A DNA stretch of 64,000 nt. Origin: Candidatus Cloacimonadota bacterium. GTDB lineage: Bacteria; Cloacimonadota; Cloacimonadia; G963667145. Of the stretch, positions 40,001-57,205 are shown piece after piece. The stretch spans positions 1,236,251 through 1,300,250 of the forward strand of contig OY762943.1 in NCBI GenBank assembly GCA_963667145.1. The letters run 5' to 3'. How positions within the stretch are numbered: position 1 is the stretch's first letter; each line of letters begins with the position of its first letter. The translations under genes and the position numbers were made by a program. Under the pieces are notes generated by a model. The model did not search any database and was not told the DNA's origin. It saw only the letters and a program-made list of their open reading frames with translations.

Positions 40001-43000
40001 GTTTGCAATTTTTTCATCGTTATTCGCTGGAGCAGTAACAGTTCCCGAGATATTGTATGTCTGAGTCAGATTGAAGTTGTTGTTTGTGCTGTCGGCGTTG
40101 TTGACGGTGATAGATTTTGTGGTATCGTCAGCGATGTAGTTCTCGGGGATAGTCAGAGTTAGGTCATATGTTCCGTTTATTGCTTTGAAGGAGTAGTTGC
40201 CACTGCCATCTGTAACTGTTGTATCAGCAAAGAATGTGCCTGCATTAGTATTTCCGCTCAATCTTAAGGTGTCGTTGCTGTGTCCTGTGACCTTACCAGA
40301 GACGGTGTGATATTCCCAAATGGTGAAGTCTTGATTCGGTATATCACCACTCAGTGAGGAGACGTTTATGGTAGTGTCGGCGGAATAGTAATTGCTTGGC
40401 GTCGAGAGAGTTACTGTGTAGTTTCCTGCCACTAATCCGCTGAAAAAGTATGCACCATTCGTCGTTGGAATTGTTTTGTTCGCCGTCAAAGAGCCACCGC
40501 TTATCGTCACGTTGGCACTTCCCGTGAAGTTGCTACCGTTGAGCTTCACATTCCCCGAGATGGAATAAATCGGAGTCAGATAGAAGTCTTTTGTTACATT
40601 GCCTCCGCTTATCGTTATTGTCGCCGTGGTGTCGTCAGCGATGTAGTTCTCGGGGATAGTCAGAGTTAGGTCATATGTTCCGTTTATTGCTTTGAAGGAG
40701 TAGTTGCCACTGCCATCTGTTACTGTTGTATCAGCAAAGAATGTGCCTGCATTAGTATTTCCGCTCAATCTTATGGTGTCGCTTCCGTGTCCTGAGACCT
40801 TACCAGAGACGGTGTGGTATTCCCAAATGGTGAAGTCTTGATTCGGTATATCACCACTCAGTGAGGAGACGTTTATGGTAGTGTCGGCGGAATAGTAATT
40901 GCTTGGCGTCGAGAGAGTTACTGTGTAGTTTCCTGCCACTAATCCGCTGAAAAAGTATGCACCATTCGTCGTTGGAATTGTTTTGTTCGTCGTCAAAGAG
41001 CCACCACTTATCGTCACATCGGCACTTCCAGTGAAGTTGCTACCGTCGAGCTTCACATTCCCTGAGATGGTGTAAGTCGGGGTTAGATTGAAGTTCTTGG
41101 CGACATCGCTTCCGCTTATAGTTATTGTCTCGATGGTATCGTCGGCAATGTAGTTCTCGGGGATAGTCAGAGTTAGGTCATATGTTCCGTTTATTGCTTT
41201 GAAGGAGTAGTTGCCACTGCCATCTGTTGCTGTTGTATCAGCAAAGAATGTGCCTGCATTAGTATTTCCGCTCAATCTTAAGGTGTCGTTGCTGTGTCCT
41301 GTGACCTTACCAGAGACGGTGTGATATTCCCAAATGGTGAAGTCTTGATTTGGTATATTGCCACTCAGCAAGGAGACGTTTATGGTAGTATTGGCGGAAT
41401 AGTAACCGTTTGGTGTTGAGAGAGTTACTATGTAATTGCCTGCTTCCAATCCGCTGAAGGAGTATGAGCCGTCGCTTGTCGAGGTGATAGAGGCGATGGA
41501 GTCTGCACTGGAGTTATACAAAGTCAGAGTTGCACCATTGTATGTTCCGCTCGGCGAGATGTTGACTTTACCCGAGATGGAATAAACTGGAGTTAGCTTA
41601 AAGTTTTTGGGAATAGGGCCCGTCACAGTGTATGTTTCTGTTGTGTCATCGGCAATGTAATTATCAGGGATTGTTAGAGTTATGGTATATGTGCTGTCTT
41701 TTATTAGCCCTGCGAATGTGTATGTTCCGCCGTTCCCATTTGGAGTTGCTTGATGCACTTGGTTGTTTGCGTAGTCGGTTAGAGTCACGGTAACAGTTTC
41801 ACTGCTGTATCCAGTGATTGTTCCACCTATGGAATAAGTCGGAGCCAGCGTGAAGTCTTGATCTGGAGTGTTTGCACTCAGTGAGGAGATGTTTATGGTA
41901 GTGTTGGCACAATAGTAACCACTTGGTGTTGAGAGAGTTACGGTGTAATTTCCTGTCGTTAATCCGCTGAAGGAGTATGCACCATTCGTTGTTGTAATTG
42001 TTTTGTTCACCGTTAGAGAGCCACCGCTTATCGTCACATCTGCACTTCCCGTGAAGTTGCTTCCGTTGAGTTTAATATTCCCTGAGATGGTGTAAGTCGG
42101 AGTCAGATTGAAGTCTTTGGTTATATTGCCTCCGCTTATCGTTATTGTCTCGGTAGTATCGTCAGCAATGTATGTACTGGGGATAGTTAGCGTTAGAGTA
42201 TAGTTTCCGTCTATTGCATTGAAGGAATAGTTGCCACTGCCATCTGTAACTGTTGTGTCAGCGAAGACTGTGTTTGCATTAGTATTTCCGCTCAATCTTA
42301 AGGTGTCGTTGCTGTGCCCTGTGACCTTGCCAGAGACGGTGTGGTATTCCCAAATGGTGAAATTTTGCCCCGTGATGTTGGCATTGCTGATGGTAATGGA
42401 GAGAGTTGTGTCTTTTGAGAAGTATCCGCTCGGGTTAGTGAGCTTCACTGTGTAGTTCCCTGCCACTAATCCGATGAAGGAGTATGAGCCGTCGCTTGTC
42501 GAGGTGGTAGAGGCGATGGAGTTTGCACTGGAGTTATACAAAGTCAAAGTTGCACCGTTATTATATGATGCCCCGCTCGGCGAGATGTTGACAGCACCCG
42601 AGACAGTGTATGTTTTTTCCGTGATAGTGAAGTCGTTCCCCGTGCTGTCGGCATTGCTTAGTGTTACGGATTTTGTTGTAGTTGTGGCTGTGTAGTTGTT
42701 AGGAACTGTGAGTTTCACCGTGTAAGTGCCTGCCTCAATTCCTGCGAACGAATATGAACCATTGGCATCGGTAGTATCGCTCGACAAAGCTGTGGAGGAG
42801 GAATCGAAAAGAGTTAAAGTAGCATTTTGGTATTTGCTTCCTGTTGATGTTGTTACGTTTCCAGAAATTGTGTATGTTACTACAGTAATGGTAATGTCGT
42901 TGCCAGTAGTGTTGTTATTCTCCATCTTAACCGTGATGGTCTCAGTTTTGTCTTCTGGAAGTAAAACGGTTATGGTATAGTCTCCATTTTGGGTCACTGT

Positions 43001-43729
43001 AAAAGAGTATGACCCGTCTTCTCCAGCTACAATTGTGTCGATAGTGGGTCCGCTCAAAACTATTGTGGCACCACTATAAACTCCTCCGATAGATTTTTTA
43101 AGCACGCCAGATATTGAGTAGGTTTTGGTAATAGTAAAGTCGTTTCCAGAGCTGTCTGCTCCACTCAGGATGATATGTTTTTCAGTTTCCGAGGAAATGT
43201 AAGTGTCTGGCACAGTCAAGGTTACAGTGTATGAGCCGTCAGCTAAGTTGGGGAAAGAATACGTGCCGTCACTTGCTGTAGTTGTGGTGGCACTGGAAGC
43301 TCCGCTTAGCGTTACAGTTGCCCCGCTGTATTTTTCTCCAGTGGATGTGGAGACTGTGCCTGATATGGAATAGAGGCTTTTAATGATAAAGTTGTTGTTG
43401 GTACTGTTAGCACCGCTCAATAACACTGTTTTTGTAGTTGTATCGGAAACATAATCACTAGGAACGGTAAGAGTTAATGTGAAAGAGCCTGTTGGAAGAT
43501 TTTTAAAAGAGTAATTGCCAAGGCTATCAGTCGTAATGCTAGCGGATTTGGAATTGTTGCTCAAAGTTATGGTGGCACCTTTGTATGCTACTCCTTCAGA
43601 AGTTTTGACCACACCAGAAATTACATAACTGTAAGAATTGTAGGAGCTTACAGTCGTTTCATAGTTAGTGCAAGAAAGCAAAAGAATAATGAAAAACAAG
43701 ATAAATAAAAAAATATTTCTTTTTTTCAT
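37064..43729 (-). CDS. Giant (~2221 aa) surface lipoprotein: about 17 tandem Ig-like/Cna-B (CarboxypepD_reg-like) domains plus a C-terminal ~500-aa array of DUF285-type 26-aa repeats
   Basis: The start is chosen at ATG 43729 (MKKRNIFLFILFFIILLLSCTNY, a lipobox). The tandem modules run YSISGxVxTSTGxxYxGATxTLSG...GxYSFxxLxxGxYTVTLTxPxxY. The C-terminal units run FNQDISNWDVSxVxDMSxMFxxAxxFN. The DNA carries near-identical tandem repeats of about 500-560 bp (e.g. around 40120, 40640, 41130). Confidence 0.75.
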   Translation of the reverse strand: MKKRNIFLFILFFIILLLSCTNYETTVSSYNSYSYVISGVVKTSEGVAYKGATITLSNNSKSASITTDSLGNYSFKNLPTGSFTLTLTVPSDYVSDTTTKTVLLSGANSTNNNFIIKSLYSISGTVSTSTGEKYSGATVTLSGASSATTTTASDGTYSFPNLADGSYTVTLTVPDTYISSETEKHIILSGADSSGNDFTITKTYSISGVLKKSIGGVYSGATIVLSGPTIDTIVAGEDGSYSFTVTQNGDYTITVLLPEDKTETITVKMENNNTTGNDITITVVTYTISGNVTTSTGSKYQNATLTLFDSSSTALSSDTTDANGSYSFAGIEAGTYTVKLTVPNNYTATTTTKSVTLSNADSTGNDFTITEKTYTVSGAVNISPSGASYNNGATLTLYNSSANSIASTTSTSDGSYSFIGLVAGNYTVKLTNPSGYFSKDTTLSITISNANITGQNFTIWEYHTVSGKVTGHSNDTLRLSGNTNANTVFADTTVTDGSGNYSFNAIDGNYTLTLTIPSTYIADDTTETITISGGNITKDFNLTPTYTISGNIKLNGSNFTGSADVTISGGSLTVNKTITTTNGAYSFSGLTTGNYTVTLSTPSGYYCANTTINISSLSANTPDQDFTLAPTYSIGGTITGYSSETVTVTLTDYANNQVHQATPNGNGGTYTFAGLIKDSTYTITLTIPDNYIADDTTETYTVTGPIPKNFKLTPVYSISGKVNISPSGTYNGATLTLYNSSADSIASITSTSDGSYSFSGLEAGNYIVTLSTPNGYYSANTTINVSLLSGNIPNQDFTIWEYHTVSGKVTGHSNDTLRLSGNTNAGTFFADTTATDGSGNYSFKAINGTYDLTLTIPENYIADDTIETITISGSDVAKNFNLTPTYTISGNVKLDGSNFTGSADVTISGGSLTTNKTIPTTNGAYFFSGLVAGNYTVTLSTPSNYYSADTTINVSSLSGDIPNQDFTIWEYHTVSGKVSGHGSDTIRLSGNTNAGTFFADTTVTDGSGNYSFKAINGTYDLTLTIPENYIADDTTATITISGGNVTKDFYLTPIYSISGNVKLNGSNFTGSANVTISGGSLTANKTIPTTNGAYFFSGLVAGNYTVTLSTPSNYYSADTTINVSSLSGDIPNQDFTIWEYHTVSGKVTGHSNDTLRLSGNTNAGTFFADTTVTDGSGNYSFKAINGTYDLTLTIPENYIADDTTKSITVNNADSTNNNFNLTQTYNISGTVTAPANNDEKIANATLTLSFGGNQIATATTDINGEYKFSGVLGSSTGNTYTITLSTPSDYFVTDSAPTTIIYSNDKTINFTLWKKYTVSGKVTGHGNDTVRLSGTTTILTDFADTTVTDENGNYSFKAINGTYNLTLTIPENYIAVDTTKSIPIDNADSTGNDFTLIPTYSILGKVNILSGSNTSDYTDGAYLTLYNSSADSIASTTSIGDGSYSFSGLVTGDYTVKLTNPTGYFTKDTTLSITISNDNVTGQNFTIQKTYSIKGSILNYGGVTLTLSGDSSATLTGVSGNYSFDGLVSGKYHVTIDIPEDWIANDTTLDIDINEADSTGNDFTLTQTYFISGEVSNGATGEKYENATLKLYFVVPGVSKDSVATTTTASDGSYKFSGITTTGSYEVRLTTPSGYYAPTTTISVSLTSSNISWKNFAIWKYHTVSGKVTGHGSDTLRLSGTSNTSPIVDFNDTVTTDANGDYAFNVLNGSYNVTLTIPNSYIADDTTKSITVSNADSTNNNFNLTPTYSISGKVSTVTGATYKGATITLSGSSNKTTTTGDRGIYSFSGLLAGTYTVALTVPTDYDATTATSLSSIAVNTTNGDSTGNNFTIRMTIPAITIEDLRTKIANGENVEKVNTSEITDMSRLFKDNGNFDQNISNWDVSRVKDMSFMFYGDTLFNQDLSNWKVDSVTNMSNMFTDAKAFNGDISGWDVSKVTDMTSMFCRAQSFNADITGWTVSSVKNMRYMFFENTTFNQEIGGWDVSNVEDMGYMFGGDDTIKCCKAFNQNLNNWNVSKVKAMDGMFKFASSFNGKISNWDVSNDTTMCGMFFGATAFNDSIGNWGTKTSNVNDMSYMFYQASSFNQDISSWDVGKVTTMAAMFRETPFNQDIGGWNVINVKDMSSLFYGNTAFNGNIGNWKEKTANVENMSWMFTGARGFDQDISDWNLSKVNNMEYMFNGASIFNQNLINWNTWTQFLPTPPGFDTNANAWLLANKPAFSN

Positions 43730-43867
43730 CTTAAAACATGCCCCCGCTAAATTCACAACCTTTCGTAAAACAATTTCAAATTCAATTTACACAATCCAAT
43801 GTTACTATTGGTGTAAAAAAATCAACAAAAATTATAATTTTTTGTAAGATTGTTTGGAATTTTTTGT

Positions 43868-45037
43868 CTACAGCCCTCTGCTATCAAGTTCAATGGGATA
43901 GGCAAATTCAAAGAAGATTTTGTTTTCGCTGTCGGTTCTGCCGTAAGTGAATTGGACATTTACGTTAATTGGAGGCTGAAAATAAAATTCCACACCGCAT
44001 CCGTACGCAAATTTATTGGTGTTGTCATCAAAATTTGAGCCCCAAGTTTTTATCCCATCCACGAAGATTAGCGGAGAGATGAATTTGCTCATATCCCAAA
44101 ATAAGTCGAAAGAGAGCAGAGTGGAGTTTAAGCTGTATTTTTGTGAATTTAATTCCGATCTGAATTTTTTGCTGCCTTCGTTATTTTCGTAATTAGTCAA
44201 TTTTCCTGTGTTTTTGTTAAAGTGTGAATATAGGCGTGTTCGGTTTCTAAAGTTTTCAGCCCATTGGGAATAGCAAAAGTATTCACTGTTGATGCCATCG
44301 TAGGAGGCATCTTTGAATTTCAACTCTGATTTGAAAAAATTGCCTTTGGTGGTTTTGATGATTTTGTCTCTTGTGTCTATGCAGAAGTATGGATTTATGC
44401 TGAAAGAGTTATCTTCCAAGGTGCGGTTGTCACTTTCGGAATTTTGCAATTTTGCTTTGCTTCCTAAGTAATAGAAATCTCTCAATTTAATTCGCAAATC
44501 TATGTCGTAGTAAATTTTGTCTATGTTTTGATTTTTGATTTCTTCTTCGGATTTACAGGCTTGAAATCCTAAGGAAGCAAACTTGCTAATTGGTTGCCAA
44601 GCACTGAGTTGCACAAAGTTTTTGCCTGCTTCCACTCCGACAAATATTCCTCGATTAAACAAATTGTTCATTCCCAAAAATAGGGGATGTGTGCCTCCGC
44701 CAATTCGCGGACGAAAGCCGTCTTCTAGTTCGATAATTATTTTTACGACAGAGGTGTCTTTTGCGATTTGATAAATTTCGACTTTGTAAAAAAATCCCAG
44801 CTCGATTAATCTTTGTTTGCTGTTTTCGATTTTGTGTTGCAAACTCAGGATGTCATAGTAAGCATTTTCTCGAATAGGAATGTGGTAAAGCACAGCGTCT
44901 TTTGCCATTTTCGTTTTCCCACAAACTTTTATTTTATCGACAAGCAAAGTTTTGGCATAGCCAAGGTTTGCAGTTGTCAGCAAAATCAGAAAGAGCAATA
45001 GCTTAATCTTGCTTGAATGCAAGGATATGTTAGTCAT
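43868..45037 (-). CDS. Putative Omp85-family outer-membrane protein with an N-terminal POTRA-like domain
   Basis: Signal peptide KIKLLLFLILLTTANLGYA. There is a POTRA-like beta-alpha-alpha-beta-beta segment (LLVDKIKVCGKTKMAKDAVLYHIPIRENAYYDILSLQHKIENSKQRLIELGFFYKVEIYQIA...VKIIIEL). Alternating aromatic beta-strand patterns continue to the C-terminus (FAYGCGVEFYFQ...QFTYG). Its start overlaps the TPR gene stop by 8 bp. Confidence 0.5.
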   Translation of the reverse strand: MTNISLHSSKIKLLLFLILLTTANLGYAKTLLVDKIKVCGKTKMAKDAVLYHIPIRENAYYDILSLQHKIENSKQRLIELGFFYKVEIYQIAKDTSVVKIIIELEDGFRPRIGGGTHPLFLGMNNLFNRGIFVGVEAGKNFVQLSAWQPISKFASLGFQACKSEEEIKNQNIDKIYYDIDLRIKLRDFYYLGSKAKLQNSESDNRTLEDNSFSINPYFCIDTRDKIIKTTKGNFFKSELKFKDASYDGINSEYFCYSQWAENFRNRTRLYSHFNKNTGKLTNYENNEGSKKFRSELNSQKYSLNSTLLSFDLFWDMSKFISPLIFVDGIKTWGSNFDDNTNKFAYGCGVEFYFQPPINVNVQFTYGRTDSENKIFFEFAYPIELDSRGL

Positions 45038-46970: not shown

Positions 46971-47711
46971 TCATCGAACGAATTTCAGATAAGACGGCTG
47001 AAAAATGTCGTCAGAATAATTTTTTTGCTTATCCGAGATGACCTGCATTTCGTAGTAGCCGTCTTTGTTGAGGATGTTGTTGCCACGCATCTTTTTGGGC
47101 ATATCGTTCACATAGTCGCGATAGAAGGCTGTGCCGAACAAAATCCCGCTTTTGGTGTAGTTTTCCACTTTCAAGAGTTTTCCCTTATCGACGGAATTTT
47201 CTATGGTGAAGTAGGAAACTTTTTTGTAGAAAGCGGGCTTTTTTCCTTCCTTGGCGGAAAACTCGATTACCAAAGTGTCTGCATTTTGCCTCAGCAATTT
47301 GTAGTGGTAGTTTTCCAAAAGTGGCGGAGTCATTATTTCGCCGATGACCACACCGCCAAACATTCCACTGCGGGGCGAAATCCGCGAATATTTTTTTGCC
47401 TTGGGGAAGTAGATGTAGTAGGAGTTGTCTTTTTGCAGGAAGACCTTGCCCTTTTGCTTTTTTGGAGACAGGAATACAGTTAGCGTGTTGCTTCCCTTGG
47501 TCATCAACTTCAGCTTCACGGTGCTTTTGATTTCGCCGTTTTTGTCCATTTCGTCGGTTTGGAGTATTCGCTCGAAAGAGTAATATTTTTTTTCAATTTC
47601 GCCAATTCTCTTCACGGCTCGTTCCAAAAGCTCCTTTTTGTCCATTTGGTTTTGGGCGAAGAGGCAACTTCCCGCAAGCACCAACGATGCCAAAAATATT
47701 TTCTTAATCAT
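46971..47711 (-). CDS. LolA-like/outer-membrane lipoprotein-sorting-like periplasmic protein
   Basis: 246 aa with a signal peptide (MIKKIFLASLVLAGSCLFAQ). Its size and beta-rich profile, and the gene order directly downstream of an FtsX/MacB-type permease, match LolA-like proteins found with such ABC systems. There is no strong motif proof. Confidence 0.45.
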   Translation of the reverse strand: MIKKIFLASLVLAGSCLFAQNQMDKKELLERAVKRIGEIEKKYYSFERILQTDEMDKNGEIKSTVKLKLMTKGSNTLTVFLSPKKQKGKVFLQKDNSYYIYFPKAKKYSRISPRSGMFGGVVIGEIMTPPLLENYHYKLLRQNADTLVIEFSAKEGKKPAFYKKVSYFTIENSVDKGKLLKVENYTKSGILFGTAFYRDYVNDMPKKMRGNNILNKDGYYEMQVISDKQKNYSDDIFQPSYLKFVR

Positions 47712-48948
47712 ATCTTAGCCCTTCCACGATATTTATTTTGGTGGATTTTACAGCAGGAATGATGCTCCCGAAAATTCCCAAGAAGATGTTTAAGACGATG
47801 ATTTTCAGAGACATAGCGAATGTGGTGATTACCATAAATGGCGTTCCTTCCGATTGTCCCGGGAATGGAGGCAAAATGACGTCGGAAAAGTTGATGATGA
47901 TGGCGGAGATTTTTGCCAAGATTATTCCGAGAATTCCTCCGAAAATGCAGATGAAGCATCCTTCCAAGATGATGAGCAAGAAGATGGACGATTTGCCGAT
48001 GCCGATAGATTTCATAGTGGCGATTTCGCGGGTTCGCTCCATGATGGACATGAAAATGGTGTTGGAGACCAGCACGATGATGAGGATGACCAACATGATG
48101 GTGACAATGCCGAGGATGTTGTCGAACATCTGTGTAACTTGGCGGAATTCTTTGGCGAGCTGAAGCCACGATTTTATTTCCATATCCAAATTGTTTTTCT
48201 TGAATTCGCTTTGCAGGAAGCTCGTTACAGCTGGAATATCGTCTCGGCTATCCAAAAGCACGGGCATGGAATGGATGTTCTCCGTGAGTGTGATGTCTTT
48301 GGTCAAATCCAAATTCGTCAGAATCAAAATCTCGTTGATGGCATCGATGGAATAGTCGGCAACTCCGCGGACTTTCGCTGCCACAGCCTCAAAAGAGTTG
48401 TCAACGCTTTGTCCCATCAGCAAGACCTCATCGCCGAGGTTCAGCTCCATTTTTCTCGCCATATCTATGGGAACGACCACGCCAGTTTTTTCTTTTTCGG
48501 ACAAGGGTTTGCCATTCTTGATGTTGGAGTCTCCATAGGAACTGCTGTTGAACGAAGCCATCATTTTTTCTTTTTTGGGTTGCATACCTTGTGCAAAAAA
48601 CATCTTGGAAGTGGTTTCTGTGCCGATGAGTCCGACAAGATTTACCCGCTCCAGAGAAAGCAAAATCTTATCGTTATTTTTGCAGATTTCGTAAATTTTG
48701 GCTTTCTCTTCTGGAGTGATGGAATTTTTGAACGAGGTGTTTTCTCCGTCCAAATAGCCACTTTTGAAGATTTGCAAATGTCCGTATTGGAAGTGGATGA
48801 GTGCGTCCGACCAAAAGTAGTTTCGGGCGTTGTTGTAGCCAGCAAAGGTGAGCAGACAGGCGGAACTGATGATGACACTGAGCATAGTCAGCAAAGTTCG
48901 GCGTTTGTTGCGGAAGATATTTCTGAGGGCTAATTTTAGCAGTTTCAT
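47704..48948 (-). CDS. ABC transporter permease, FtsX/MacB/LolCE family (TM1 + ~220-aa periplasmic domain + 3 TM)
   Basis: The N-terminus MKLLKLALRNIFRNKRRTLLTMLSVIISSACLL is followed by a long soluble domain and a C-terminal FtsX-like TM bundle (...MSIMERTREIATMKSIGIGKSSIFLLIILEG...). Confidence 0.85.
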   Translation of the reverse strand: MKLLKLALRNIFRNKRRTLLTMLSVIISSACLLTFAGYNNARNYFWSDALIHFQYGHLQIFKSGYLDGENTSFKNSITPEEKAKIYEICKNNDKILLSLERVNLVGLIGTETTSKMFFAQGMQPKKEKMMASFNSSSYGDSNIKNGKPLSEKEKTGVVVPIDMARKMELNLGDEVLLMGQSVDNSFEAVAAKVRGVADYSIDAINEILILTNLDLTKDITLTENIHSMPVLLDSRDDIPAVTSFLQSEFKKNNLDMEIKSWLQLAKEFRQVTQMFDNILGIVTIMLVILIIVLVSNTIFMSIMERTREIATMKSIGIGKSSIFLLIILEGCFICIFGGILGIILAKISAIIINFSDVILPPFPGQSEGTPFMVITTFAMSLKIIVLNIFLGIFGSIIPAVKSTKINIVEGLRYD

Positions 48949-49691
48949 TTTTCTTCTATCTCCTTTTTTATCTCTTCCATTTCCAGATAGAAGTCGGGTT
49001 TGCTCGGCAAATCGTTGGGAATTCTGCTGAAGTAGAGCAGAGCTTTCTCATCGTTTTTGATTTCTTGGTGATAAAATTTTCCCACAAAGAAGTTGATAAG
49101 TGCTTGGCTGTAAAGGGCGTTCAGATAGGCGTTCGTGTTTTGTCTATTTTGCAATAGTTCATCGAACCAAGCGTTGGTCATCTCGTAATCTTCCAAAATT
49201 GTTTCCTCGAAATCGTAGTATTTTTTGGGATAATTGACCAGTGAGGAAAGGCGATAGAAGCGGATTTCGGGATTTTCCATATCTCTTATCACGGCTTTGT
49301 TGAGTAGTTTGATGGCTTTTTTGGAACTGAAGATGACAAAGGGGAAATGGTCGTATTGCAGATTGATGGAGTTGATGAAGCCAGCGAAAGCCAAATAAAT
49401 CGGCTGTTTGTTCTTCTCCGTGAAATTTTCCATCAAGTCCTTGGCTTGGCGAATACATTTTTTGTAATCTTTGTCCGATTGCAAATTCATATTACTGCTC
49501 TGGTCGGTGAAATTGTAGTAGCAATTCAGAGCCTGCAGAAAGTCGTGATTGTCGCTTTCTTTCTCGATTGTCATCTCTCTCAGCTGAAAAGCAGTGGGAA
49601 TTTCAAAATTGGGTTTGTCCATTGCATAAGCTGTTGAAAAGCAGACAAATAAAAGTAAACTGATTATGCTTATTTTGAAAAATTTGTTCAT
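48945..49691 (-). CDS. Hypothetical secreted alpha-helical protein (248 aa)
   Basis: Signal peptide MNKFFKISIISLLLFVCFSTAYA. It is embedded between the ATPase and permease genes, with stop and start overlaps on both sides. Confidence 0.45.
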   Translation of the reverse strand: MNKFFKISIISLLLFVCFSTAYAMDKPNFEIPTAFQLREMTIEKESDNHDFLQALNCYYNFTDQSSNMNLQSDKDYKKCIRQAKDLMENFTEKNKQPIYLAFAGFINSINLQYDHFPFVIFSSKKAIKLLNKAVIRDMENPEIRFYRLSSLVNYPKKYYDFEETILEDYEMTNAWFDELLQNRQNTNAYLNALYSQALINFFVGKFYHQEIKNDEKALLYFSRIPNDLPSKPDFYLEMEEIKKEIEEK

Positions 49692-49692
49692 C

Positions 49693-50373
49693 TTAGTTTC
49701 CTCCTTGGTTTATGTTGCCGTCTTTGAGGTGAATTTTGTTTTCGATTTTCGCCAAAAGCTCCGTGTCGTGCGAGGCGATGATGAATGTGGTGTCGTGGAG
49801 TTTGGCTTCTTTTTGCAAGAGCTTGAGCATTATTTGGCTGGTTTTGGAGTCCAAACTCGCAGTCGGTTCGTCCGCCAGTACCAAAAGCGGTTTTCGCACC
49901 AAGGCTCTGGCTATGGCAACGCGTTGTTGTTGACCGCCCGAGAGTTGCTTGGGAAATCTGTTTTTGAGTTCCAAGATTTCCAATTGCTCCAAAAGGTCGT
50001 GGATTCTGTTTTTTTTCTCTTCGTGCGAGATAGATGAGTGCCAGAGCGGAAGTTCCACATTTTCGTAAACATTCAGAGTTGGAATGAGGTTGAAAGATTG
50101 GAAGATGAAGCCGACCTTATTTCTTCGGAAATCCGACAGATAGCTCTCTTTGCATTTGGAGATTTCTTCATCTTCAAAGAGATATGAGCCAGACGAGCAA
50201 TTGTCTAAGCATCCTAAGATGTTGAGCAAGGTAGATTTCCCTGAGCCCGAGGGTCCTATTACGGCGACAAACTCTCCTTTGGCGATTTGCAGGTTGACGC
50301 CTTTGAGAGCAGGAACGGAGATGGTTTTGCTTAAAGTGTAGTCTTTTTTGATGTTTCTAAGTGACAGCAGCAT
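49693..50373 (-). CDS. ABC transporter ATP-binding protein (MacB/LolD-like)
   Basis: GPSGSGKST, Q-loop, LSGGQQQRVAIARAL, LVLADEPTASLD, H-loop. Confidence 0.9.
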   Translation of the reverse strand: MLLSLRNIKKDYTLSKTISVPALKGVNLQIAKGEFVAVIGPSGSGKSTLLNILGCLDNCSSGSYLFEDEEISKCKESYLSDFRRNKVGFIFQSFNLIPTLNVYENVELPLWHSSISHEEKKNRIHDLLEQLEILELKNRFPKQLSGGQQQRVAIARALVRKPLLVLADEPTASLDSKTSQIMLKLLQKEAKLHDTTFIIASHDTELLAKIENKIHLKDGNINQGGN

Positions 50374-50376
50374 AAT

Positions 50377-50643
50377 TTATTCCTCCCTTTCCAGTTTTGC
50401 TAACTCTTTTGCCAACATTTTCTTTTTCAAGTTTGTGCTTCCGAAGACGTCAAAGGTGTTGATGAAGTGGAAGAACAAGCCAATTCCCCAACCGAAGAGC
50501 GGATAAATCGCCCAAAAATGTCCGTAATAATTGAGCGAATTGAAAACTATCAAAAATGTGTTTACTATTAAGTACACGAGAAGGTGGGTGTAAAATGAAA
50601 GCTTGTTTTCCACAATCTTCTCGGCTTTTTGTTTGTTGTTCAT
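50377..50643 (-). CDS. 2TM-domain small membrane protein
   Basis: 88 aa with two hydrophobic helices and a C-terminal charged coiled tail (KKKMLAKELAKLEREE). It lies immediately downstream of the PadR gene, a common PadR-2TM pairing. Confidence 0.6.
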   Translation of the reverse strand: MNNKQKAEKIVENKLSFYTHLLVYLIVNTFLIVFNSLNYYGHFWAIYPLFGWGIGLFFHFINTFDVFGSTNLKKKMLAKELAKLEREE

Positions 50644-50657
50644 AAAAATTCTCCTTC

Positions 50658-50951
50658 TTAATTCAAAAGGCTTTCCAGCGTTTTCACGTATTGAGCAAAG
50701 TCGTCTCTGCCCTTATTGGTCAGGGAATAGTAGGTCGCCGGCTTCCTATCGATGAACTTTTTTTCCACGTGGATGTATTCGGCTTCCTCCAGTTTCTTCA
50801 GGTGAACGGAGAGGTTGCCGTCGCTGGCTTTGGTTTGCTTTTTCAGAAAATTGAAATCCGCTTTTTCCACTCCTATCAAAATGGACATAATCGCCAAACG
50901 GATACGCGAGTGGATGAGGTTGTTGATTTTTTGATAATCAAAGCTCGGCAT
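50658..50951 (-). CDS. PadR-family transcriptional regulator
   Basis: The winged HTH LIHSRIRLAIMSILIGVEKADFNFLKKQTKASDGNLSVHLKKLEEAEYI matches PadR. The start is chosen at MPSFDYQK. Confidence 0.8.
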   Translation of the reverse strand: MPSFDYQKINNLIHSRIRLAIMSILIGVEKADFNFLKKQTKASDGNLSVHLKKLEEAEYIHVEKKFIDRKPATYYSLTNKGRDDFAQYVKTLESLLN

Positions 50952-51525
50952 GGCGATTTTTCTTGTATAAAACAATTCCGGGAATTACTTGCAAGGCGAT
51001 GATGAGAACGGCGAAGAGAAGCAAACTGTAGCTGGAAATCCAAAACAGAAAAACAAAAGAAGAGGCAAACCAGCAAATTCCCGAGATTTTTAAGATTTTG
51101 TTTTCGTAGATTATTCCCGAAATGAAGTGAGCGAGGCTGAGAGTGAGGGCAGGGAAAAGCACTGCAATTTCCTCGGAAATGTAAGGCGAATACAAAGCCG
51201 CAAAAAGCATAGTCGCCATTATAAGCATTGTGGAACCCCAAAGACCTATAATAATTTTACTCAAAAAAGTTATCGGCAAGTTTTTTCTCTGTCTGCTTCC
51301 CGAGACAAAGCTGATAATTCCGCCTGTGATGTAGGTAACTGCCCACATTCGATTGATGTACGAATAGTTTTCGGTTTGTATCATAAAAAATGTTCCAATG
51401 CAGGCAAAGGAAACCAAAATTCCCCATGTGATGTAGTGCATACCGTTGTCGAACACTTTTTTCTTGGATTCCTCGATCATCTGTTTTATGTATAGAATTT
51501 CGTTTTGGACTTCTTTGTTTTCCAT
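50938..51525 (-). CDS. Hypothetical polytopic membrane protein (195 aa)
   Basis: It has five to six hydrophobic helices and overlaps the PadR start. Confidence 0.45.
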   Translation of the reverse strand: MENKEVQNEILYIKQMIEESKKKVFDNGMHYITWGILVSFACIGTFFMIQTENYSYINRMWAVTYITGGIISFVSGSRQRKNLPITFLSKIIIGLWGSTMLIMATMLFAALYSPYISEEIAVLFPALTLSLAHFISGIIYENKILKISGICWFASSFVFLFWISSYSLLLFAVLIIALQVIPGIVLYKKNRHAEL

Positions 51526-51749
51526 AAATTCTCCCTTTGAAAATCATTTATAAAGTACTTTGTTTTTTAAAGTGAAGTTTGTCAAACGATTTTTTGAAAT
51601 AAATATTTTCAGTGACAGTGAGAAGGCTGTGAAACAGTTATATGCTGGAGTTTCTCAAAAAATCTGTTTTATTTTCTTGACGCTCAAACACGATTTAAGA
51701 GAAAAATTTGACGAATTTTATTAAACAAACAAGTTTAAAGGAGAAGGGT

Positions 51750-52079
51750 TTGAGAAAGTTTTTGTTGTTAATAATTCTTTGTATGGTTTTGGGTTGTAGT
51801 TCTAAGCAAGCTGAATTAACCCTTGTTTCTACGAAGAATTTTAACCCCGAAAAAGGGTTTACAAAAATAGGTAAAGTAACTGGAACTGACAATGTTTCTA
51901 TTATTATAATTGCTCCAACAGGAAAACCAAAAATGGAAATAGCAATAAGTAAAGCTATCGAAGCCGCACCAAATTGCTGTGCATTAGCTGATGTTAAAAT
52001 ATATAGCTATTCTTGGTGGATACCTTACATTTATGGTCAATATGGCTGGATTGTCGAAGGTACAGCACTATCTCAATAA
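51750..52079 (+). CDS. Small hypothetical lipoprotein
   Basis: aaggag then TTG 51750. Lipobox ILCMVLGCSS. The track ORF starts at the upstream TTG 51708. Confidence 0.45.
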   Translation: MRKFLLLIILCMVLGCSSKQAELTLVSTKNFNPEKGFTKIGKVTGTDNVSIIIIAPTGKPKMEIAISKAIEAAPNCCALADVKIYSYSWWIPYIYGQYGWIVEGTALSQ

Positions 52080-52091
52080 AAAGGAATTAAC

Positions 52092-53174
52092 ATGAAAAAT
52101 TTATTCTATGCAGGTCTTTTATTATTGCTTTTTTGTGGATGTGCTGTAGAATTGACTAAAGCTGTTCTTTCTGGCAAGTCTTATAAACCTTATGAAAATG
52201 TACCAGCTTCAAACTCTTATGCCACTGATAATAATAAAACTGGCAATTATGTTGGTGCATCAGAGGAGTGGCCGAATTTATCTAATTATTCTTCAGCCTT
52301 CAAAGATTCCTCAGAAGAATGGCCTGATTTGTCTAATTATTCCACTGCCTTCAAAGATAGCTATGTGGACATCCGTAATAATATCCCCATCACTCGCAAG
52401 AAAAATAAAAATGCCATTGGTGTTATCATTGGCAATCAGAGATACTTGAATAGGGATGTTCCCAGTGTTGATTTTGCCCTAAACGATGCTAACTATATGA
52501 AAAAATATTTGGTGAATACACTCGGATATGATGAAGGCAATATCATCTATATAGAGAACGCTACGCAGACAGATTTCATCACTGTTTTTGGGAATGAGAA
52601 AAGTTACAAGGGCAAACTTTACGATTGGGTGAAAGAGAATAAGTCGGATGTGTTTGTATATTATGCAGGTCACGGAGCACCAAATCCTGAGAACAAAAAC
52701 GGCTATTTTGTCCCCACTAATGCTGACCCAACAAGGCTTGATTTGACTGGCTACAATCTGAACCTTTTTTACAAAAATTTGAGCCAAATCAAATACAAAT
52801 CTTTGACAGTGGTTTTGGACGCTTGCTTCAGTGGAGTTAGCGAGAAAGGGATGCTTCTGAAAAATGTCTCTCCGATAATGCCGAAAGTGAAAACCGATTA
52901 TGTTCTCAAGAAAAACACTTGTATTTTCACTTCTGCATCTGAGGTGGAAGTTTCCTCTTGGTATCCCGAAAAACAACATTCGTTGTTTACATATTTTTTC
53001 TTGAAAGGTCTTCAGGGAGAAGCGGACGCTAACAAAGACAAAATAATTTCATCTAAAGAGTTAAAAAAATATTTGGATGAGAATGTTGTTTACTTTGCTC
53101 GCCGAATAAGTAGCCGAGAGCAACACCCACAATTAGTTGAGAATAATCCTATCAACATTGCCAATATTAGATAG
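52092..53174 (+). CDS. Caspase-family (peptidase C14) lipoprotein
   Basis: Lipobox LLLFCGCA. The catalytic His-Cys dyad sits in conserved context: VFVYYAGHGAP...LTVVLDACFSG. A tandem 17-aa repeat SEEWP(N/D)LSNYS(S/T)AFKDS lies before the protease domain. Confidence 0.8.
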   Translation: MKNLFYAGLLLLLFCGCAVELTKAVLSGKSYKPYENVPASNSYATDNNKTGNYVGASEEWPNLSNYSSAFKDSSEEWPDLSNYSTAFKDSYVDIRNNIPITRKKNKNAIGVIIGNQRYLNRDVPSVDFALNDANYMKKYLVNTLGYDEGNIIYIENATQTDFITVFGNEKSYKGKLYDWVKENKSDVFVYYAGHGAPNPENKNGYFVPTNADPTRLDLTGYNLNLFYKNLSQIKYKSLTVVLDACFSGVSEKGMLLKNVSPIMPKVKTDYVLKKNTCIFTSASEVEVSSWYPEKQHSLFTYFFLKGLQGEADANKDKIISSKELKKYLDENVVYFARRISSREQHPQLVENNPINIANIR

Positions 53175-54005
53175 ATGAAAACGAAAGCGTTAATTTTACT
53201 CTTTTTTCTGTGTTGCGTGAGTGCGTATTGCAAAAACTTTGACGAGATAGAAAAAATTAGTAATTCCAAATATTTGGTCACGATTTACCAATCCATAGAA
53301 AATATCACACCTCAGGAAGCGATAAAATTGGCGAAGAATAAGGCTTACAACAAAACTCTTGATTACGAAGAGATTGAGGTTAGTGCTTCTTCTATGATTT
53401 TGCAAACTTCGGAGAATGAAAAGTTTAAAGATATTTTCGCTAAATATGTTTGCACCTCCAGTTCTGGCACTATCATTGGCAGTTCTATCCTTGAAGAGAA
53501 AAAGTTTGTCGAAAACAATCGAGTATTTTTGAAGTTGGTTATTGAAGTTAAAGTTGGGAAGCACAAGAAGAAAAAAGACCCATATTTCAACATCGAAGCA
53601 AATCTAAATAAAGACAACATCAGAGAAGGTGAGTCGCTTTCTATTTCTGTGAAATCAAGTAAAGATTGCTATATCACAGTTCTTGATATTCAATCCAACA
53701 ATAGCATTAATCAAATTTTCCCCAATCAATTCCAATCTGATAACTATCTTGCAAAAAACAAGACGTTGAATTTGCCCACAGAACAAGAAATCAAACTTGG
53801 TTTAGAATATGTTTCGTCTTTGCTTGAGGGGAAAGATTCCGATTTGGAGTTAATCAAAATTATCGCCACCAAAAAACCTTTATATCTTTTACTGGATTCA
53901 GAAGACGACGAAAATCAATTTGAAAAATTGCAAGAAACTCTAATCAGGATTCCAAGAGACGAAATAGAAATTGTAGATTTACCAATCTATATTTATAAAA
54001 GGTAA
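53175..54005 (+). CDS. Secreted DUF4384-like protein, a partner frequently found with bacterial caspase-domain proteins
   Basis: It has a signal peptide with a Cys-containing N-terminus. The segment SISVKSSKDCYITVLDIQSNNSINQIFPN resembles the DUF4384 core. The gene starts 1 bp after the caspase gene stop. Confidence 0.5.
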   Translation: MKTKALILLFFLCCVSAYCKNFDEIEKISNSKYLVTIYQSIENITPQEAIKLAKNKAYNKTLDYEEIEVSASSMILQTSENEKFKDIFAKYVCTSSSGTIIGSSILEEKKFVENNRVFLKLVIEVKVGKHKKKKDPYFNIEANLNKDNIREGESLSISVKSSKDCYITVLDIQSNNSINQIFPNQFQSDNYLAKNKTLNLPTEQEIKLGLEYVSSLLEGKDSDLELIKIIATKKPLYLLLDSEDDENQFEKLQETLIRIPRDEIEIVDLPIYIYKR

Positions 54006-54169
54006 TTTTTTATCTTTCTTTTTTGTATTTTACATTACTAAATTTTGTTTACTGTTCAAAATTTTCTCAAAGTAGCGAAATAATTTCTCATTGAGAAAAA
54101 TATTTGACGAGTTTGAGGAAAATAAAAAGTATTGAGCGTTTTAAATTTTCTTTTTTAAGGAGTAGTTTT

Positions 54170-57100
54170 ATGAGTGACCATATGCGTAGAATACCGATTA
54201 AAAGCCTTGTTAAATGGGTTTTTGACGAGTTAGAGCAAAGCAAAAGTATTTTTTCTGTTCCAGAGCAAAAGTTTTTTCGCAAGGATAACGAGAACTTTGC
54301 CGAAGTTTTTGGAGAAAAAATGTCAACAATTGTTGGTCCAGCAGCTGGGCCACATTCACAACTTAGCCAAAATATCATCGCCTCATATTTGGCAGGTGCC
54401 AGATTTTTTGAGATTAAGACAGTGCAGATTTTGGACAAGTTGGAATTGGGTAAACCTTGCATTGAGTCTGCTGATGAATGTTACAATACTGAGTGGTCAA
54501 CCGAGTTGGCTATCGGTGGATGGAGCCTGAGCAGAGAAGAATGTGAGCGTGGCGAGGCTAACGCTTTTGACGAATACGTAAAGGCTTGGTTCATTTGCCA
54601 TGTTTTGGATAAAAAACTTGGTTTGTCTGGCAAGAGCAACGGGCGATTAGTCTTCAATATGTCGGTTGGCTATAATCTGGAAGGCATTCTTGACCCTAAG
54701 GTGGATAAATTTATCGAAGGTCTCAAAGACGCTTCTGCTGAACCAATTTTTGAAAAATGCAGAAAGATTCTCAAGGAAGCAAAAATTTCGGGAATTAGTG
54801 ATGAGTTCATCGATAGCATCCCTTCACAAATTTGTAGTGGAATTACTCTTTCCACAATGCATGGATGTCCACCAGATGAGATAGAGAAGATTGTTAAGTA
54901 TCTTTTGGAAAAGAAGAAACTTAACGTTTTTGCCAAGCTTAATCCGACTTTGCTTGGTTCAGATTTTTTGAAAATGACTTGGGAAAAGCTCGGCTTCGAC
55001 ATTGTGCAAAAGCAAGAGTTTTTTGATAACGATTTGAAGATAGAGCAAGCACTGCCAATGTTGGAGAGGCTCATTGCGTTTGCCAAGGAGCAGGGCAAAG
55101 AGTTCGGCGTTAAACTTTCCAATACTTTGCAGTCTATCAATAGAAAGGGAATTTTGCCGGGCGAAGAGATGTATATGTCTGGTAGAGCGTTGTATCCGCT
55201 CACTATCAACTTGGCTGCTAAATTGGCTAAGCATTTCAAGGGCGACCTCAAGATTTCTTATTCTGGTGGAGCAGACGCTCTGAATATAGAAAATATTGCT
55301 GCTTGTGGAATTAGACCTATTACTCTTGCCACGAGTTTGCTCAAGCCAGGTGGATATGAGAGATTCAATCAGCTCGCTACCATAGTTGACCCACTTCTGC
55401 CAAATGGTGGTTACGACAAGGTGGATGTGGACGCTTTGCAAAAATTGGCTGATGGCGTTTTCGATGATGTCAATCACAAAAAAGAGAAGCATCCAGTTGG
55501 TGAGCGGAAGATTGACGAGTATTTGCCGATGGTGGATTGCTTTGTTGACCCATGCAGAAACCAATGTCCAATTAGCCAAGATATTCCTGACTACATTGAC
55601 GCTGTGGCAAAAGGCGAATATGTGAAGGCTTTGGAGATTATTACTGCCAAAAACCCGCTTCCGTTCATCACGGGAACGATTTGTCCTCACACTTGCATGA
55701 ATAAATGTACTAGAATGGAGTACGACGAATCTGTGGCGATTAGAGAGATGAAGTTGTTCGCTGCCGAGAAAGGTTATGCTGGATTGCAGTTGCAAAAAGG
55801 TGAAGCGAAGAACATTAAAATTGCTGTGATTGGTGCTGGACCTGCGGGTATCGCTTCTTCGTATTTCCTTGCCAGAGAAGGTTTTTCCGTGGATGTTTTC
55901 GAGAAATCTTCGGTTGCTGGAGGCACGGTTGCCAATGTGATTCCTGACTTCAGAATTTCCAGAGATTCCATCGCCAAAGATGTGGAGTTAGCCAAGAAAT
56001 TGGGTGTGAAGTTCAACTTCAATTGTGGCGATTTCGAGATAGAGAAGCTGAAAGAAGACGGCTACAAATACGTGATTTTGGCTGTTGGAGCAGGCAAGCA
56101 TACTTTCGTGGATTTGCAAGGCGGAGAGAGCCTGAACGCCATTGAGTTCCTGAGCGATTTTGTTTTGGGCAAAGCCAAGGTTGGCAAAAAAGTTGCTGTT
56201 ATCGGTGGCGGAAACACCGCTATGGATGCTGCTCGTGCTGCCAAGCGATTGGCTGACGATGTGTACATTGTGTATCGTCGCACCATCGAGCAGATGCCAG
56301 CCGATTTGGAAGAGTTGCAACTTGCTCAGAAGGATGGTGTTATCTTCAAGAATTTGCTCGCTCCAGTTAGTTATGACGGCAAGACTTTTAAGTGCGAAGT
56401 GATGGAACTCGGTGCAAAAGATTCTTCTGGCAGAGCAAGACCCGTTGGCACTGGCAAATTCGAGGAGTTGGCAATTGACACTGTTATCTCCAGTATTGGC
56501 GACAAAGTTGACAGCGATTTCTTGAAATCAAAAGGTGTCCACAAGATTATAAGTGAGGTTTCTCTGGAGACAGATGCTCGCAACGTTTATCTTGCTGGAG
56601 ATGCACAGCGTGGACCTGCGACAGTGGTGGAGGCTATAGCCGATGCGACCAAAGTTGCCAAGTCGATTATGTTCAAAGAGGGCGTAGTTGGCTTTGAAGA
56701 CCGTTTTTGGGTTGATGATGTTGAGGTTGATGCGGACGCTTTGAAAGCAAAGAAAGCTATTTTGGTTAATCAAGCTGATGGCGAAGAAGAGGCTGAGCGT
56801 TGTCTCGGATGCGACACTGTCTGCAATATTTGTTCTTCAGTTTGTCCGAACAGAGCCAATGTTCAAATTGTTGTGGAAGGTTTGGAGAAAATTAACCAAA
56901 TCGTTCACATCGATGGAATGTGCAACGAGTGCGGAAACTGTGGATTCTTCTGTCCTTACATCGGTGAGCCATACAGAGACAAATTCACTCTCTTCTGGAC
57001 TGAGGCGGATTTCTGCGACAACCAAAATAACGGTTTTGTTCTCATCGAAGATGGCGATTGCCCTAAGTTCAAGGTGAAAGTTTGGGGCGAAGTCTTTGTT

Positions 57101-57205
57101 GTTGATTTCGACAAAAGCGGTTGTCCAAGCGTACCACTGCCAGAAGGTTTGGCTGAGATTATCTGGACTTGCTACACCGATTATAGATATTTATTTGTAT
57201 TTTAG
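54170..57205 (+). CDS. ygfK: YgfK-like large Fe-S flavoprotein (putative selenate reductase subunit YgfK family, ~1011 aa): DHOD/DPD-like domain + GltD-like FAD/NAD(P) oxidoreductase + 4Fe-4S clusters
   Basis: The start at ATG 54170 (aaggag + 8 nt) gives MSDHMRRIPIKSLVKWVFDELEQSKSIFSVPEQKFF...STIVGPAAGPHSQLSQNI, co-linear with the E. coli YgfK N-terminus (MRPIPFEELLTRIFDEY...GIPEQQF...GPAAGPHTQLAQNI). It has a Rossmann GAGPAG motif and C-terminal Cys clusters (CxxCxxC). Confidence 0.8.
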   Translation: MSDHMRRIPIKSLVKWVFDELEQSKSIFSVPEQKFFRKDNENFAEVFGEKMSTIVGPAAGPHSQLSQNIIASYLAGARFFEIKTVQILDKLELGKPCIESADECYNTEWSTELAIGGWSLSREECERGEANAFDEYVKAWFICHVLDKKLGLSGKSNGRLVFNMSVGYNLEGILDPKVDKFIEGLKDASAEPIFEKCRKILKEAKISGISDEFIDSIPSQICSGITLSTMHGCPPDEIEKIVKYLLEKKKLNVFAKLNPTLLGSDFLKMTWEKLGFDIVQKQEFFDNDLKIEQALPMLERLIAFAKEQGKEFGVKLSNTLQSINRKGILPGEEMYMSGRALYPLTINLAAKLAKHFKGDLKISYSGGADALNIENIAACGIRPITLATSLLKPGGYERFNQLATIVDPLLPNGGYDKVDVDALQKLADGVFDDVNHKKEKHPVGERKIDEYLPMVDCFVDPCRNQCPISQDIPDYIDAVAKGEYVKALEIITAKNPLPFITGTICPHTCMNKCTRMEYDESVAIREMKLFAAEKGYAGLQLQKGEAKNIKIAVIGAGPAGIASSYFLAREGFSVDVFEKSSVAGGTVANVIPDFRISRDSIAKDVELAKKLGVKFNFNCGDFEIEKLKEDGYKYVILAVGAGKHTFVDLQGGESLNAIEFLSDFVLGKAKVGKKVAVIGGGNTAMDAARAAKRLADDVYIVYRRTIEQMPADLEELQLAQKDGVIFKNLLAPVSYDGKTFKCEVMELGAKDSSGRARPVGTGKFEELAIDTVISSIGDKVDSDFLKSKGVHKIISEVSLETDARNVYLAGDAQRGPATVVEAIADATKVAKSIMFKEGVVGFEDRFWVDDVEVDADALKAKKAILVNQADGEEEAERCLGCDTVCNICSSVCPNRANVQIVVEGLEKINQIVHIDGMCNECGNCGFFCPYIGEPYRDKFTLFWTEADFCDNQNNGFVLIEDGDCPKFKVKVWGEVFVVDFDKSGCPSVPLPEGLAEIIWTCYTDYRYLFVF

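Follow-up and report, generated by a model that had tools for sequence, protein, structure and literature searches.

We analysed a stretch of 64,000 nucleotides (nt) from contig OY762943.1 of a Candidatus Cloacimonadota bacterium, referred to here as the window, which belongs to a Cloacimonadales genome of ~1.5 Mb. At 52092-54005, the window contains two abutting genes. The first codes for a caspase-like cysteine protease of peptidase family C14 and the second for a secreted protein with a DUF4384 domain, which we call the partner. The region is probably the core of a three-gene operon of Sec-exported proteins that consists of the small lipoprotein lipoA, a lipid-anchored metacaspase-type C14 protease and its secreted partner. 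The positions of all features are compiled in Table 1. A strong Shine-Dalgarno sequence, AAAGGAG (51737-51743), precedes the lipoA TTG, and 12 nt separate the lipoA stop codon from the caspase ATG. The caspase stop codon TAG lies at 53172-53174 and the partner ATG follows on the very next base, 53175, which agrees with an original prediction made for this region from the DNA letters. No Shine-Dalgarno sequence was found upstream of the partner ATG in the window, and its absence before an abutting start codon suggests that the partner is translationally coupled to the caspase by termination-reinitiation. A scan for consensus promoters and terminators performed no better than on shuffled sequence and we hence claim no transcript boundaries. 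An Rfam search of 51300-54300 gave no match.

Table 1. Features of the caspase-partner locus and of its surroundings, in window coordinates
Feature	Position	Strand	Remarks
lipoA	51750-52079	+	109-residue small lipoprotein, TTG start, first operon gene
Caspase	52092-53174	+	360-residue lipoprotein precursor, C14 (metacaspase-type) cysteine protease; open reading frame (ORF) listing, Pfam
Partner	53175-54005	+	276-residue secreted protein; ORF listing, Pfam DUF4384
Caspase signal peptide and lipobox MKNLFYAGLLLLLFCGC	52092-52142	+	Cys17 (predicted to be lipidated) at 52140-52142
Polar tether, 74 residues (18-91)	52143-52364	+	74% S/N/T/Q/G/P/D/E/K/Y; presumably flexible
Repeat unit 1 SEEWPNLSNYSSAFKDS	52260-52310	+	in-frame, 51 bp
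Repeat unit 2 SEEWPDLSNYSTAFKDS	52311-52361	+	in-frame, 51 bp
Swappable cassette	51798-52367	+	mature lipoA, spacer, caspase signal peptide and lipobox, repeat-bearing linker; blastn against L047
Caspase domain, residues 92-360	52365-53171	+	opens with conserved V-D-I-x-x-x-I-P motif
S1 residue Asp132	52485-52487	+	in N-D motif
Catalytic His194	52671-52673	+	in YYAGHGAP; alignment, conservation
S1 residue Asp243	52818-52820	+	two residues before Cys245
Catalytic Cys245	52824-52826	+	in VLDACFSG; alignment, conservation
EF-hand-like loop D312-A-N314-K-D316-K-I-I319-S-S-K-E323	53025-53060	+	in caspase domain; pattern only
Basic hinge E-V-K-V-G-K-H-K-K-K-K-D-P-Y-F	53544-53588	+	between partner domains
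Partner Cys165	53667-53669	+	motif K-D-C-Y-[IL]-T; invariant in 36/36 homologues
YgfK-type putative selenate reductase subunit	54104-57205	+	TIGR03315, 1313 bits, cut-off 835
Two-transmembrane-segment (2TM) protein, HTH_34 regulator, 195-residue membrane protein	50377-51525	-	after Lol-like cluster
Lol-like cluster	46971-50373	-	LolA_like (PF17131), FtsX/LolCE-like permease, 248-residue protein, LolD/MacB-like ABC ATPase; divergent from operon
2230-residue ORF, giant surface-protein candidate	37064-43756	-	~12 CarboxypepD_reg/SdrD_B/SpaA-type repeats and DUF285 repeats
POTRA-domain protein	43868-45037		adjoins the 2230-residue ORF

By its sequence, the protease is an additional member of peptidase family C14. 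It matches Pfam Peptidase_C14 (PF00656) with an E-value of 7.9e-14 and 52.3 bits against a cut-off of 21.4, with residues 111-350 aligned to positions 5-225 of the 233-position model, while its Pfam match to C13 is weaker (30.7 bits) and none was found to C25. The original prediction of a caspase-family protease with His and Cys in their canonical context is borne out by this match and by a pairwise HMMER alignment to Arabidopsis metacaspase-9 (PDB 8a53), which brings GHG and DxC into catalytic register. Here, YAGHG pairs with YSGHG, LDACFSG with DSAHSG and ALND with GCIND, and the GHG and D-A-C motifs fall on chain residues H118 and A170. Given an offset of 23 residues, we take the latter to be His95 and position 147 (C147A) of the metacaspase, AtMC9, and GCIND presumably is its Cys29-x-x-Asp32 S1 motif. 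The searches found 1144 caspase homologues; an exact-match look-up for the window caspase returned no record. In the 120 best, His194 and Asp132 are always kept and Cys245 and Asp243 are kept in 119; all four are invariant in 18 of 18 short homologues. Compared with PDB sequences, the family profile found metacaspase-9 as its best match at an E-value of only 0.0057. Characterised C14 enzymes other than caspases all cut after Arg or Lys owing to an acidic S1 pocket (PMC5756287, PMC6426788). In the alignment, Asp132 and Asp243 correspond to the C-x-x-D and D-x-C positions of metacaspases, and from this acidic pocket we infer that the window enzyme cuts after Arg or Lys like metacaspases and orthocaspases.

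The caspase domain also contains an EF-hand-like loop, defined here as 12 residues of which the first, third and fifth are Asp or Asn, the eighth is hydrophobic and the last is Glu. In the alignment of 120 homologues, position 1 is D/N in 117, position 3 N/D in 110, position 5 D/N in 115, position 8 I/V/L in 119 and position 12 E in 113 sequences. Conservation of this loop suggests that the caspase might be controlled by Ca2+.

The signal peptide of the caspase ends in the lipobox L-F-C-G-C with Cys17, which presumably conforms to the PROSITE-type lipobox pattern. As the original prediction had proposed, the protein thus has a lipobox, and all close orthologues keep one (FCGC, SLGC, ITGC, IFGC, SFGC). 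Held by the Cys17 lipid and the 74-residue tether, the caspase is predicted to reside in the periplasm or at the envelope. A hydrophobic N-terminal export signal was found in 100 of 114 full-length homologues. Across the clade, the N-terminal modules include LysM, PEGA, CARDB, DUF6175, DUF2846, WD40 and TPR, and Pfam did not assign the alternative N-terminal domains seen in the homologues P0002 and P0005 to any family. The caspase domain is C-terminal in every clade member examined and starts with a conserved D-I-x-x-x-I-P. Hydrophobic N-termini together with extracytoplasmic modules point to an extracytoplasmic location of the clade as a whole, and as far as these sequence features tell, the whole clade is exported.

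Asplund-Samuelsson et al. pointed out exported caspase homologues of prokaryotes in an in silico survey in 2012 (PMC3501461). The metacaspases of that survey resemble the window clade in a hydrophobic helix at the N-terminus, interpreted as a signal peptide, and in their extracellular or cell-wall-binding accessory domains. However, the survey did not describe lipoprotein anchoring, a FlgT_N-DUF4384 partner, module swapping or a tether motif, all of which are seen or predicted here. In a literature search, we found no published experimental work on exported prokaryotic caspases. With orthocaspases (MEROPS C14), for example, MaOC1 of Microcystis aeruginosa, the window caspase has in common the caspase fold, the His-Cys dyad and two S1 Asp residues. 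In contrast to these, it is predicted to be exported and lipid-anchored, and it features an EF-hand-like loop and a partner encoded in trans. Extra domains of orthocaspases mostly are C-terminal (PMC5756287), whereas all extra modules of the window clade lie N-terminal to the caspase domain. Orthocaspases in the sense of Klemencic and Funk moreover comprise p20 only, with no p10 homology, whereas the Pfam alignment of the window caspase runs to model position 225 of 233.

The partner family was aligned from 36 sequences chosen from 41 clusters of a word-indexed search. The DUF4384-like character that the original prediction had assigned to the partner was confirmed by a Pfam match above threshold (PF14326; E-value 3.6e-16, 59.4 bits, cut-off 27; residues 150-234 on positions 3-80 of the 81-position model), and DUF4384 is found in all 36 family members. 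Signal peptides, too, are present in 36 of 36, and at least 12, about a third, have lipoboxes; partners of the window clade carry a signal peptide of the signal peptidase I type instead (residues 1-17, V-S-A↓Y). In the mature protein, a FlgT_N-like alpha/beta domain (residues 24-129) is linked by a Lys-rich hinge to a DUF4384 beta-sandwich (140-234), which is followed by a helix and a strand at the C-terminus (248-274); the C-terminal part has a conserved motif, IPRxExExxDL. In agreement with this layout, an AlphaFold 2 model (predicted local distance difference test score, pLDDT, 84; predicted template modelling score 0.79) has an N-terminal domain of the topology beta-beta-alpha...alpha-beta-beta with a disordered loop at residues 71-81, a 10-residue hinge and a sandwich at 140-232. 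FlgT_N (PF16548) matches 17 of the 36 members, with a best E-value of 6.9e-6, and in this match the family resembles FlgT of the Vibrio H-ring and LPP20-type proteins, which are periplasmic or associated with the outer membrane. Unlike FlgT, the partner has neither the FlgT middle nor the C-terminal domain, and no flagellar genes lie nearby. A Foldseek search of the PDB with the partner model, dominated by the sandwich domain, returned only generic sandwiches of low TM-score, and the family profile matched no PDB sequence.

Two elements of the partner stand out by their conservation. Cys165 is the lone invariant cysteine in the sandwich of this exported protein and could be buried, redox-active or engaged in an intermolecular disulfide. 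The hinge has the family consensus K-V-K-V-G-K-Q-K-G-E-K-D-P-Y-F, in which Asp135 and Phe138 are invariant. Lys or Arg occupies positions 124, 126, 129, 131 and 134 in 35, 31, 31, 21 and 28 of the 36 sequences, respectively, compared with a protein-wide mean of 13%. The basic hinge could hence serve a protease with basic P1 specificity as cleavage or pseudosubstrate site.

The partner family almost always adjoins a clade caspase, and it does so across phyla. From the caspase side, the two genes abut in the window, in the near-identical strain locus L047, in the other Cloacimonadales loci L001, L002 and L004, in L005 (Ignavibacteria) and in L010 (Endomicrobiales), where their order is reversed; in L029 (Desulfobacterales), a GIY-YIG ORF sits between them. 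Counted from this side, six distinct loci show the pairing. From the partner side, five of six independent homologues (L030, L033, L036, L040, L042) abut a large protein that ends in a clade caspase. Distances between abutting genes range from an 8-bp overlap to 69 bp, and flanking genes vary between genera while the caspase-partner cassette is kept. In addition, pairwise distances of caspase domains and partners correlate (mirror-tree r 0.65, permutation p 6e-4, 12 pairs).

Between lipobox and caspase domain, the tether is hypervariable among orthologues. L001 has no repeat, L002 is Pro-rich at this place, L004 has a PEGA-like domain and P0002 a different domain of ~200 residues. In the window, Tandem Repeats Finder reported a repeat of period 51 with 1.9 copies and a score of 142 at 52260-52358. 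The 51-bp tandem repeat described earlier at about 52261-52365 is thus present, with its in-frame units at 52260-52361, a few bases off. Both units encode the motif S-E-E-W-P-[ND]-L-S-N-Y-S-[ST]-A-F-K-D-S. They differ at 10 of 51 nt, and six of the eight changed codons are synonymous, including a Ser change from TCC to AGC; the two nonsynonymous changes are N/D and S/T. Locus L046, with 78% DNA identity to the window, retains both units, each of which shares more identical positions with its orthologue (44 and 46) than with the neighbouring unit (41 of 51). From the synonymous excess and the retention of both orthologous units it follows that the repeat peptide is, on this sequence comparison, under purifying selection. 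Neutral slippage as the origin of the repeat was rejected on the same two grounds. The 17-residue repeat probably is a short binding motif.

Two further observations concern this part of the protein and locus L046. Residues 18-37 of the caspase (52143-52200) follow a pattern, x-x-x-(L/I)-T-K-A-V-(L/I)-x-G-x-(S/T)-Y-x-P-Y, that is common to the window, L046 and L001, and the remainder of the tether has diverged entirely; this conserved stretch after Cys17 could be a sorting or contact motif. In L046 (5001-6785), the caspase and partner genes are frameshifted, which in a long-read assembly might reflect indel errors or pseudogenisation.

Comparison with L047 revealed a cassette exchange, in which the module N-terminal to the caspase domain is replaced as a unit. 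L047 has the same gene order as the window, its DNA is 96.5% identical upstream and 91.8% identical downstream of the cassette (blastn), and at the protein level both caspase domain and partner are 97.8% identical. Homology extends exactly through the Cys16 codon of lipoA (to 51797) and starts again at 52368 with the first codons of the caspase domain, and none was found between these points. Here, 570 bp of the window correspond to 609 bp of unrelated coding sequence in L047, whose product is a single lipoprotein-caspase fusion of 487 residues on the lipoA signal peptide. Since the breakpoints coincide with module boundaries, we argue that the segment before the caspase domain serves for targeting or anchoring and can be exchanged as a module, and that lipoA and the tether may fill its role in the window. 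Such a clean swap between near-identical strains provides a natural experiment on protease retargeting. The lipoA lipobox V-L-G-C, with Cys16 at 51795-51797, is kept in orthologues. The protein is a small lipoprotein and a candidate for a YbjQ (DUF74)/RcsF fold; its family profile matched no PDB sequence. L005 has a different small lipoprotein in the lipoA position, for which Pfam gave no family. In L001, two tandem lipoA paralogues (5089-5484 and 5650-5988) precede the caspase, compared with one in the window and none in L047.

Taken together, we think it likely that the locus is an envelope Arg/Lys-specific caspase operon with a dedicated docking partner that is its client or regulator. The caspase would be tethered at the envelope by its Cys17 lipid and a flexible 74-residue tether bearing two selected 17-residue binding motifs. 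It would act jointly with the partner, whose DUF4384 sandwich might dock on the protease. The Lys-rich hinge would then be the likely site that enters the active site. In the client reading, which we favour tentatively (see below), a cut at the hinge would release the FlgT_N-like part from the DUF4384 part. The place or target of action would be decided by the variable N-terminal portion, which in the window is lipoA together with the repeat tether.

Several findings weigh against individual parts of this explanation. About 20 of 28 caspase-side loci have no partner, caspases with and without a partner are intermixed in the tree, and no caspase lies within 9 kb of the partner homologue L044. 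From the partner-less majority and the interleaved tree we conclude that the partner is an accessory rather than a general requirement; by this sequence survey, it is a dedicated but dispensable accessory of the caspase. The hinge is partly beta-strand in the model, with a pLDDT of ~93, and thus may be structural, and the most distant group of partners (P0158-P0161) lacks it. The window partner itself falls below detection for FlgT_N, with no match at E <= 1. Pfam gave no EF-hand match in the caspase, whose loop is recognised by its pattern, and MaOC1, the only characterised orthocaspase, was reported to be Ca2+-independent (PMC5756287). Finally, lipoA homologues elsewhere stand alone and L047 does without lipoA. 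This makes its membership in the system weak, and that lipoA belongs to the caspase-partner system is only suggestive.

As for the role of the partner, we lean, tentatively, toward a dedicated docked client that is cut at the basic hinge, because DUF4384 recurs next to clan-CD proteases and because of the analogy to the cut in Csx30. An association of DUF4384 with proteases is already on record, and DUF4384 forms the C-terminal domain of one Csx30 group (bioRxiv 10.1101/2022.08.17.504292). In addition, it is found fused in cis to orthocaspases (C14) and to trypsin-pseudocaspase proteins (PMC6426788). Craspase, the type III-E CRISPR system of Csx29 (a TPR-CHAT protease of clan CD) and Csx30, likewise combines a caspase-like protease with a dedicated two-domain client. 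The Csx30 protein of D. ishimotonii has a C-terminal domain of another group, which is not DUF4384, and is cut by Csx29 where this domain begins, at AVGM↓KKDK. The site resembles VGK-x-K-x-x-KD in the window hinge, a resemblance that may be coincidental. In contrast to the window enzyme, Craspase is cytoplasmic, RNA-guided and of the CHAT type rather than C14, and its P1 residue is Met; the window locus has no Cas genes, sigma factor or Csx31. It would be a bold step, and one we consider improbable, to regard the operon as an extracytoplasmic counterpart of Csx29-Csx30-type protease-client signalling modules. Such a module would work by a Ca2+- or ligand-gated caspase cutting its DUF4384 client at the hinge, upon which the freed FlgT_N-like domain would remodel or signal from the envelope. 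The N-terminal module (lipoA and repeat tether, PEGA, CARDB, WD40 or LysM) would set input or location, and the CHASE2-cyclase and c-di-GMP/chemotaxis-type genes of L005 and L010, described below, would serve as downstream readers.

Alternatively, the docked partner could keep the enzyme in a latent state. The partner would then be a dedicated inhibitor or latency factor, co-translated 1:1 and acting as a pseudosubstrate via the hinge or another loop, with the logic of staphopain-staphostatin or separase-securin. An exported protease would thereby stay silent until a signal such as Ca2+ or envelope damage frees it. Abutting genes and the missing Shine-Dalgarno sequence of the partner fit a coupled, stoichiometric synthesis. 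In the loci surveyed, it is the partner that depends on the caspase, not vice versa. The conserved basic hinge, the invariant Cys165 and the MG-like beta-sandwich also are in line with this function. Operon-encoded inhibitors of cysteine proteases provide an analogy: in staphopain-staphostatin and SpeB-Spi, the protease gene is followed by a gene for a small beta-rich inhibitor. These inhibitors, however, are cytoplasmic and their proteases belong to clan CA, whereas the window partner has its own signal peptide and two domains. Overall, we regard inhibition as a serious but rather doubtful alternative to the client role.

A general or nutritional envelope protease seems unlikely as well. Such an enzyme, a functional counterpart of gingipains, would degrade or process many periplasmic or external proteins, with partner and N-terminal modules as anchoring or adhesin-type accessories or as a scaffold. 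Gingipains (C25) and PorU of Porphyromonas, an FCB-group anaerobe, are envelope-attached Arg/Lys-specific clan-CD enzymes with immunoglobulin-like or adhesin accessory domains, and Cloacimonadota, also FCB-group anaerobes, ferment amino acids. The acidic S1 pocket, the housekeeping chromosomal context and the exported clade with its binding and anchoring modules LysM, PEGA, CARDB and WD40 would all suit this role, as would a partner made of a FlgT_N-like domain of outer-membrane-associated type and an immunoglobulin-like sandwich. Adjacency of the partner across phyla and correlated divergence nevertheless point to a dedicated rather than a generic tie. Moreover, gingipains and PorU belong to C25 and carry a type IX secretion C-terminal domain, whereas the window caspase has a C14 match and a lipobox, and no type IX secretion signal or surface-export motif was found after Cys17. 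The locus also provides one small enzyme and not a battery of proteases.

A death or defence effector acting at the envelope is very unlikely. The caspase would have to be loosed on its own envelope or on neighbour cells under phage attack or stress, i.e., in extracytoplasmic abortive infection or fratricide, an idea raised for exported metacaspases by Asplund-Samuelsson et al. (PMC3501461). Module swaps like the one between the window and L047 are common in conflict genes, and PADLOC models gave a weak generic caspase match (E-value 6.2e-6), with nothing credible for the partner. Against this, no sensor NTPase, gasdermin, EACC1, CRISPR or toxin gene was found near the locus, which does not lie in a defence island. 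The NCBIfam model caspase_w_EACC1 scored 68.8 bits, far under its cut-off of 140, and the infection signals that known systems use are cytoplasmic, out of reach for an exported enzyme. The locus is not a recognisable anti-phage system and the caspase is not a cytoplasmic death effector. The earlier view of an envelope-anchored protease in place of such an effector has thus gained weight, given the frequent export signals, the LysM, PEGA and CARDB modules and the lack of any defence-model match beyond the generic one.

Least of all do we expect a sortase-like transpeptidase that cleaves the partner and joins it to an envelope acceptor: the client is dedicated and exported, ends in the motif IPRxExExxDL, and clan CD has precedents in PorU, GPI8 and legumain-type ligases, but we found neither a sorting signal nor an acceptor system that could be recognised, no C14 enzyme is known to work as a transpeptidase, and the C-terminal strand of the partner is modelled as part of the fold.

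A lipid-tethered, exported protease that swaps its N-terminal modules and has a FlgT_N-DUF4384 partner in trans is an undescribed variant and not a separate category, and nothing about the module contradicts current expectations. In this sense the original prediction was right to call extracytoplasmic, partner-coupled caspases poorly understood, whereas "unknown" would go too far in view of PMC3501461 and bioRxiv 10.1101/2022.08.17.504292. Prokaryotic caspase homologues mostly are discussed as cytoplasmic death or defence effectors, whereas the window locus represents a large exported clade that spans phyla, and about a third of the sampled clade loci carry a dedicated DUF4384 partner. DUF4384 is a widespread orphan domain that also occurs on kinases, other proteases and some Csx30 proteins. 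If the partner is a substrate or regulator, DUF4384 would gain a role as docking module for clan-CD proteases, and we would have a first handle on caspase-type enzymes in the bacterial envelope.

Downstream of the operon, a T-rich spacer without a clear terminator hairpin separates the partner gene from the YgfK-type oxidoreductase gene, which is followed by genes for a class II aldolase and an amidohydrolase. Upstream and divergent lie the genes for the 195-residue membrane protein, the HTH_34 regulator and the 2TM protein, and then the Lol-like ABC cluster. The layout of this cluster is identical in L046 and L047 and differs in L001-L004. A functional tie of the operon to the neighbouring ABC/LolA_like genes was rejected, as the adjacency is not conserved in L001-L004 and thus probably coincidental. 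The loci nearest to the window come from complete metagenome-assembled Cloacimonadota/Cloacimonadales chromosomes of ~1.55 Mb.

In other phyla, signalling genes were recognised by eye from translations near the caspase-partner pair. In L005 (3209-5418), a CHASE2-type membrane protein and then a cyclase-like ORF directly follow the partner, and in L010 (1347-2812 and 6845-8226), there are CheB-like, HD-GYP-like, receiver and receiver-GGDEF-like genes. Fusions of caspase and CHASE2 are known in cyanobacteria (PMC3501461), and a link of exported caspases to second-messenger signalling is possible.

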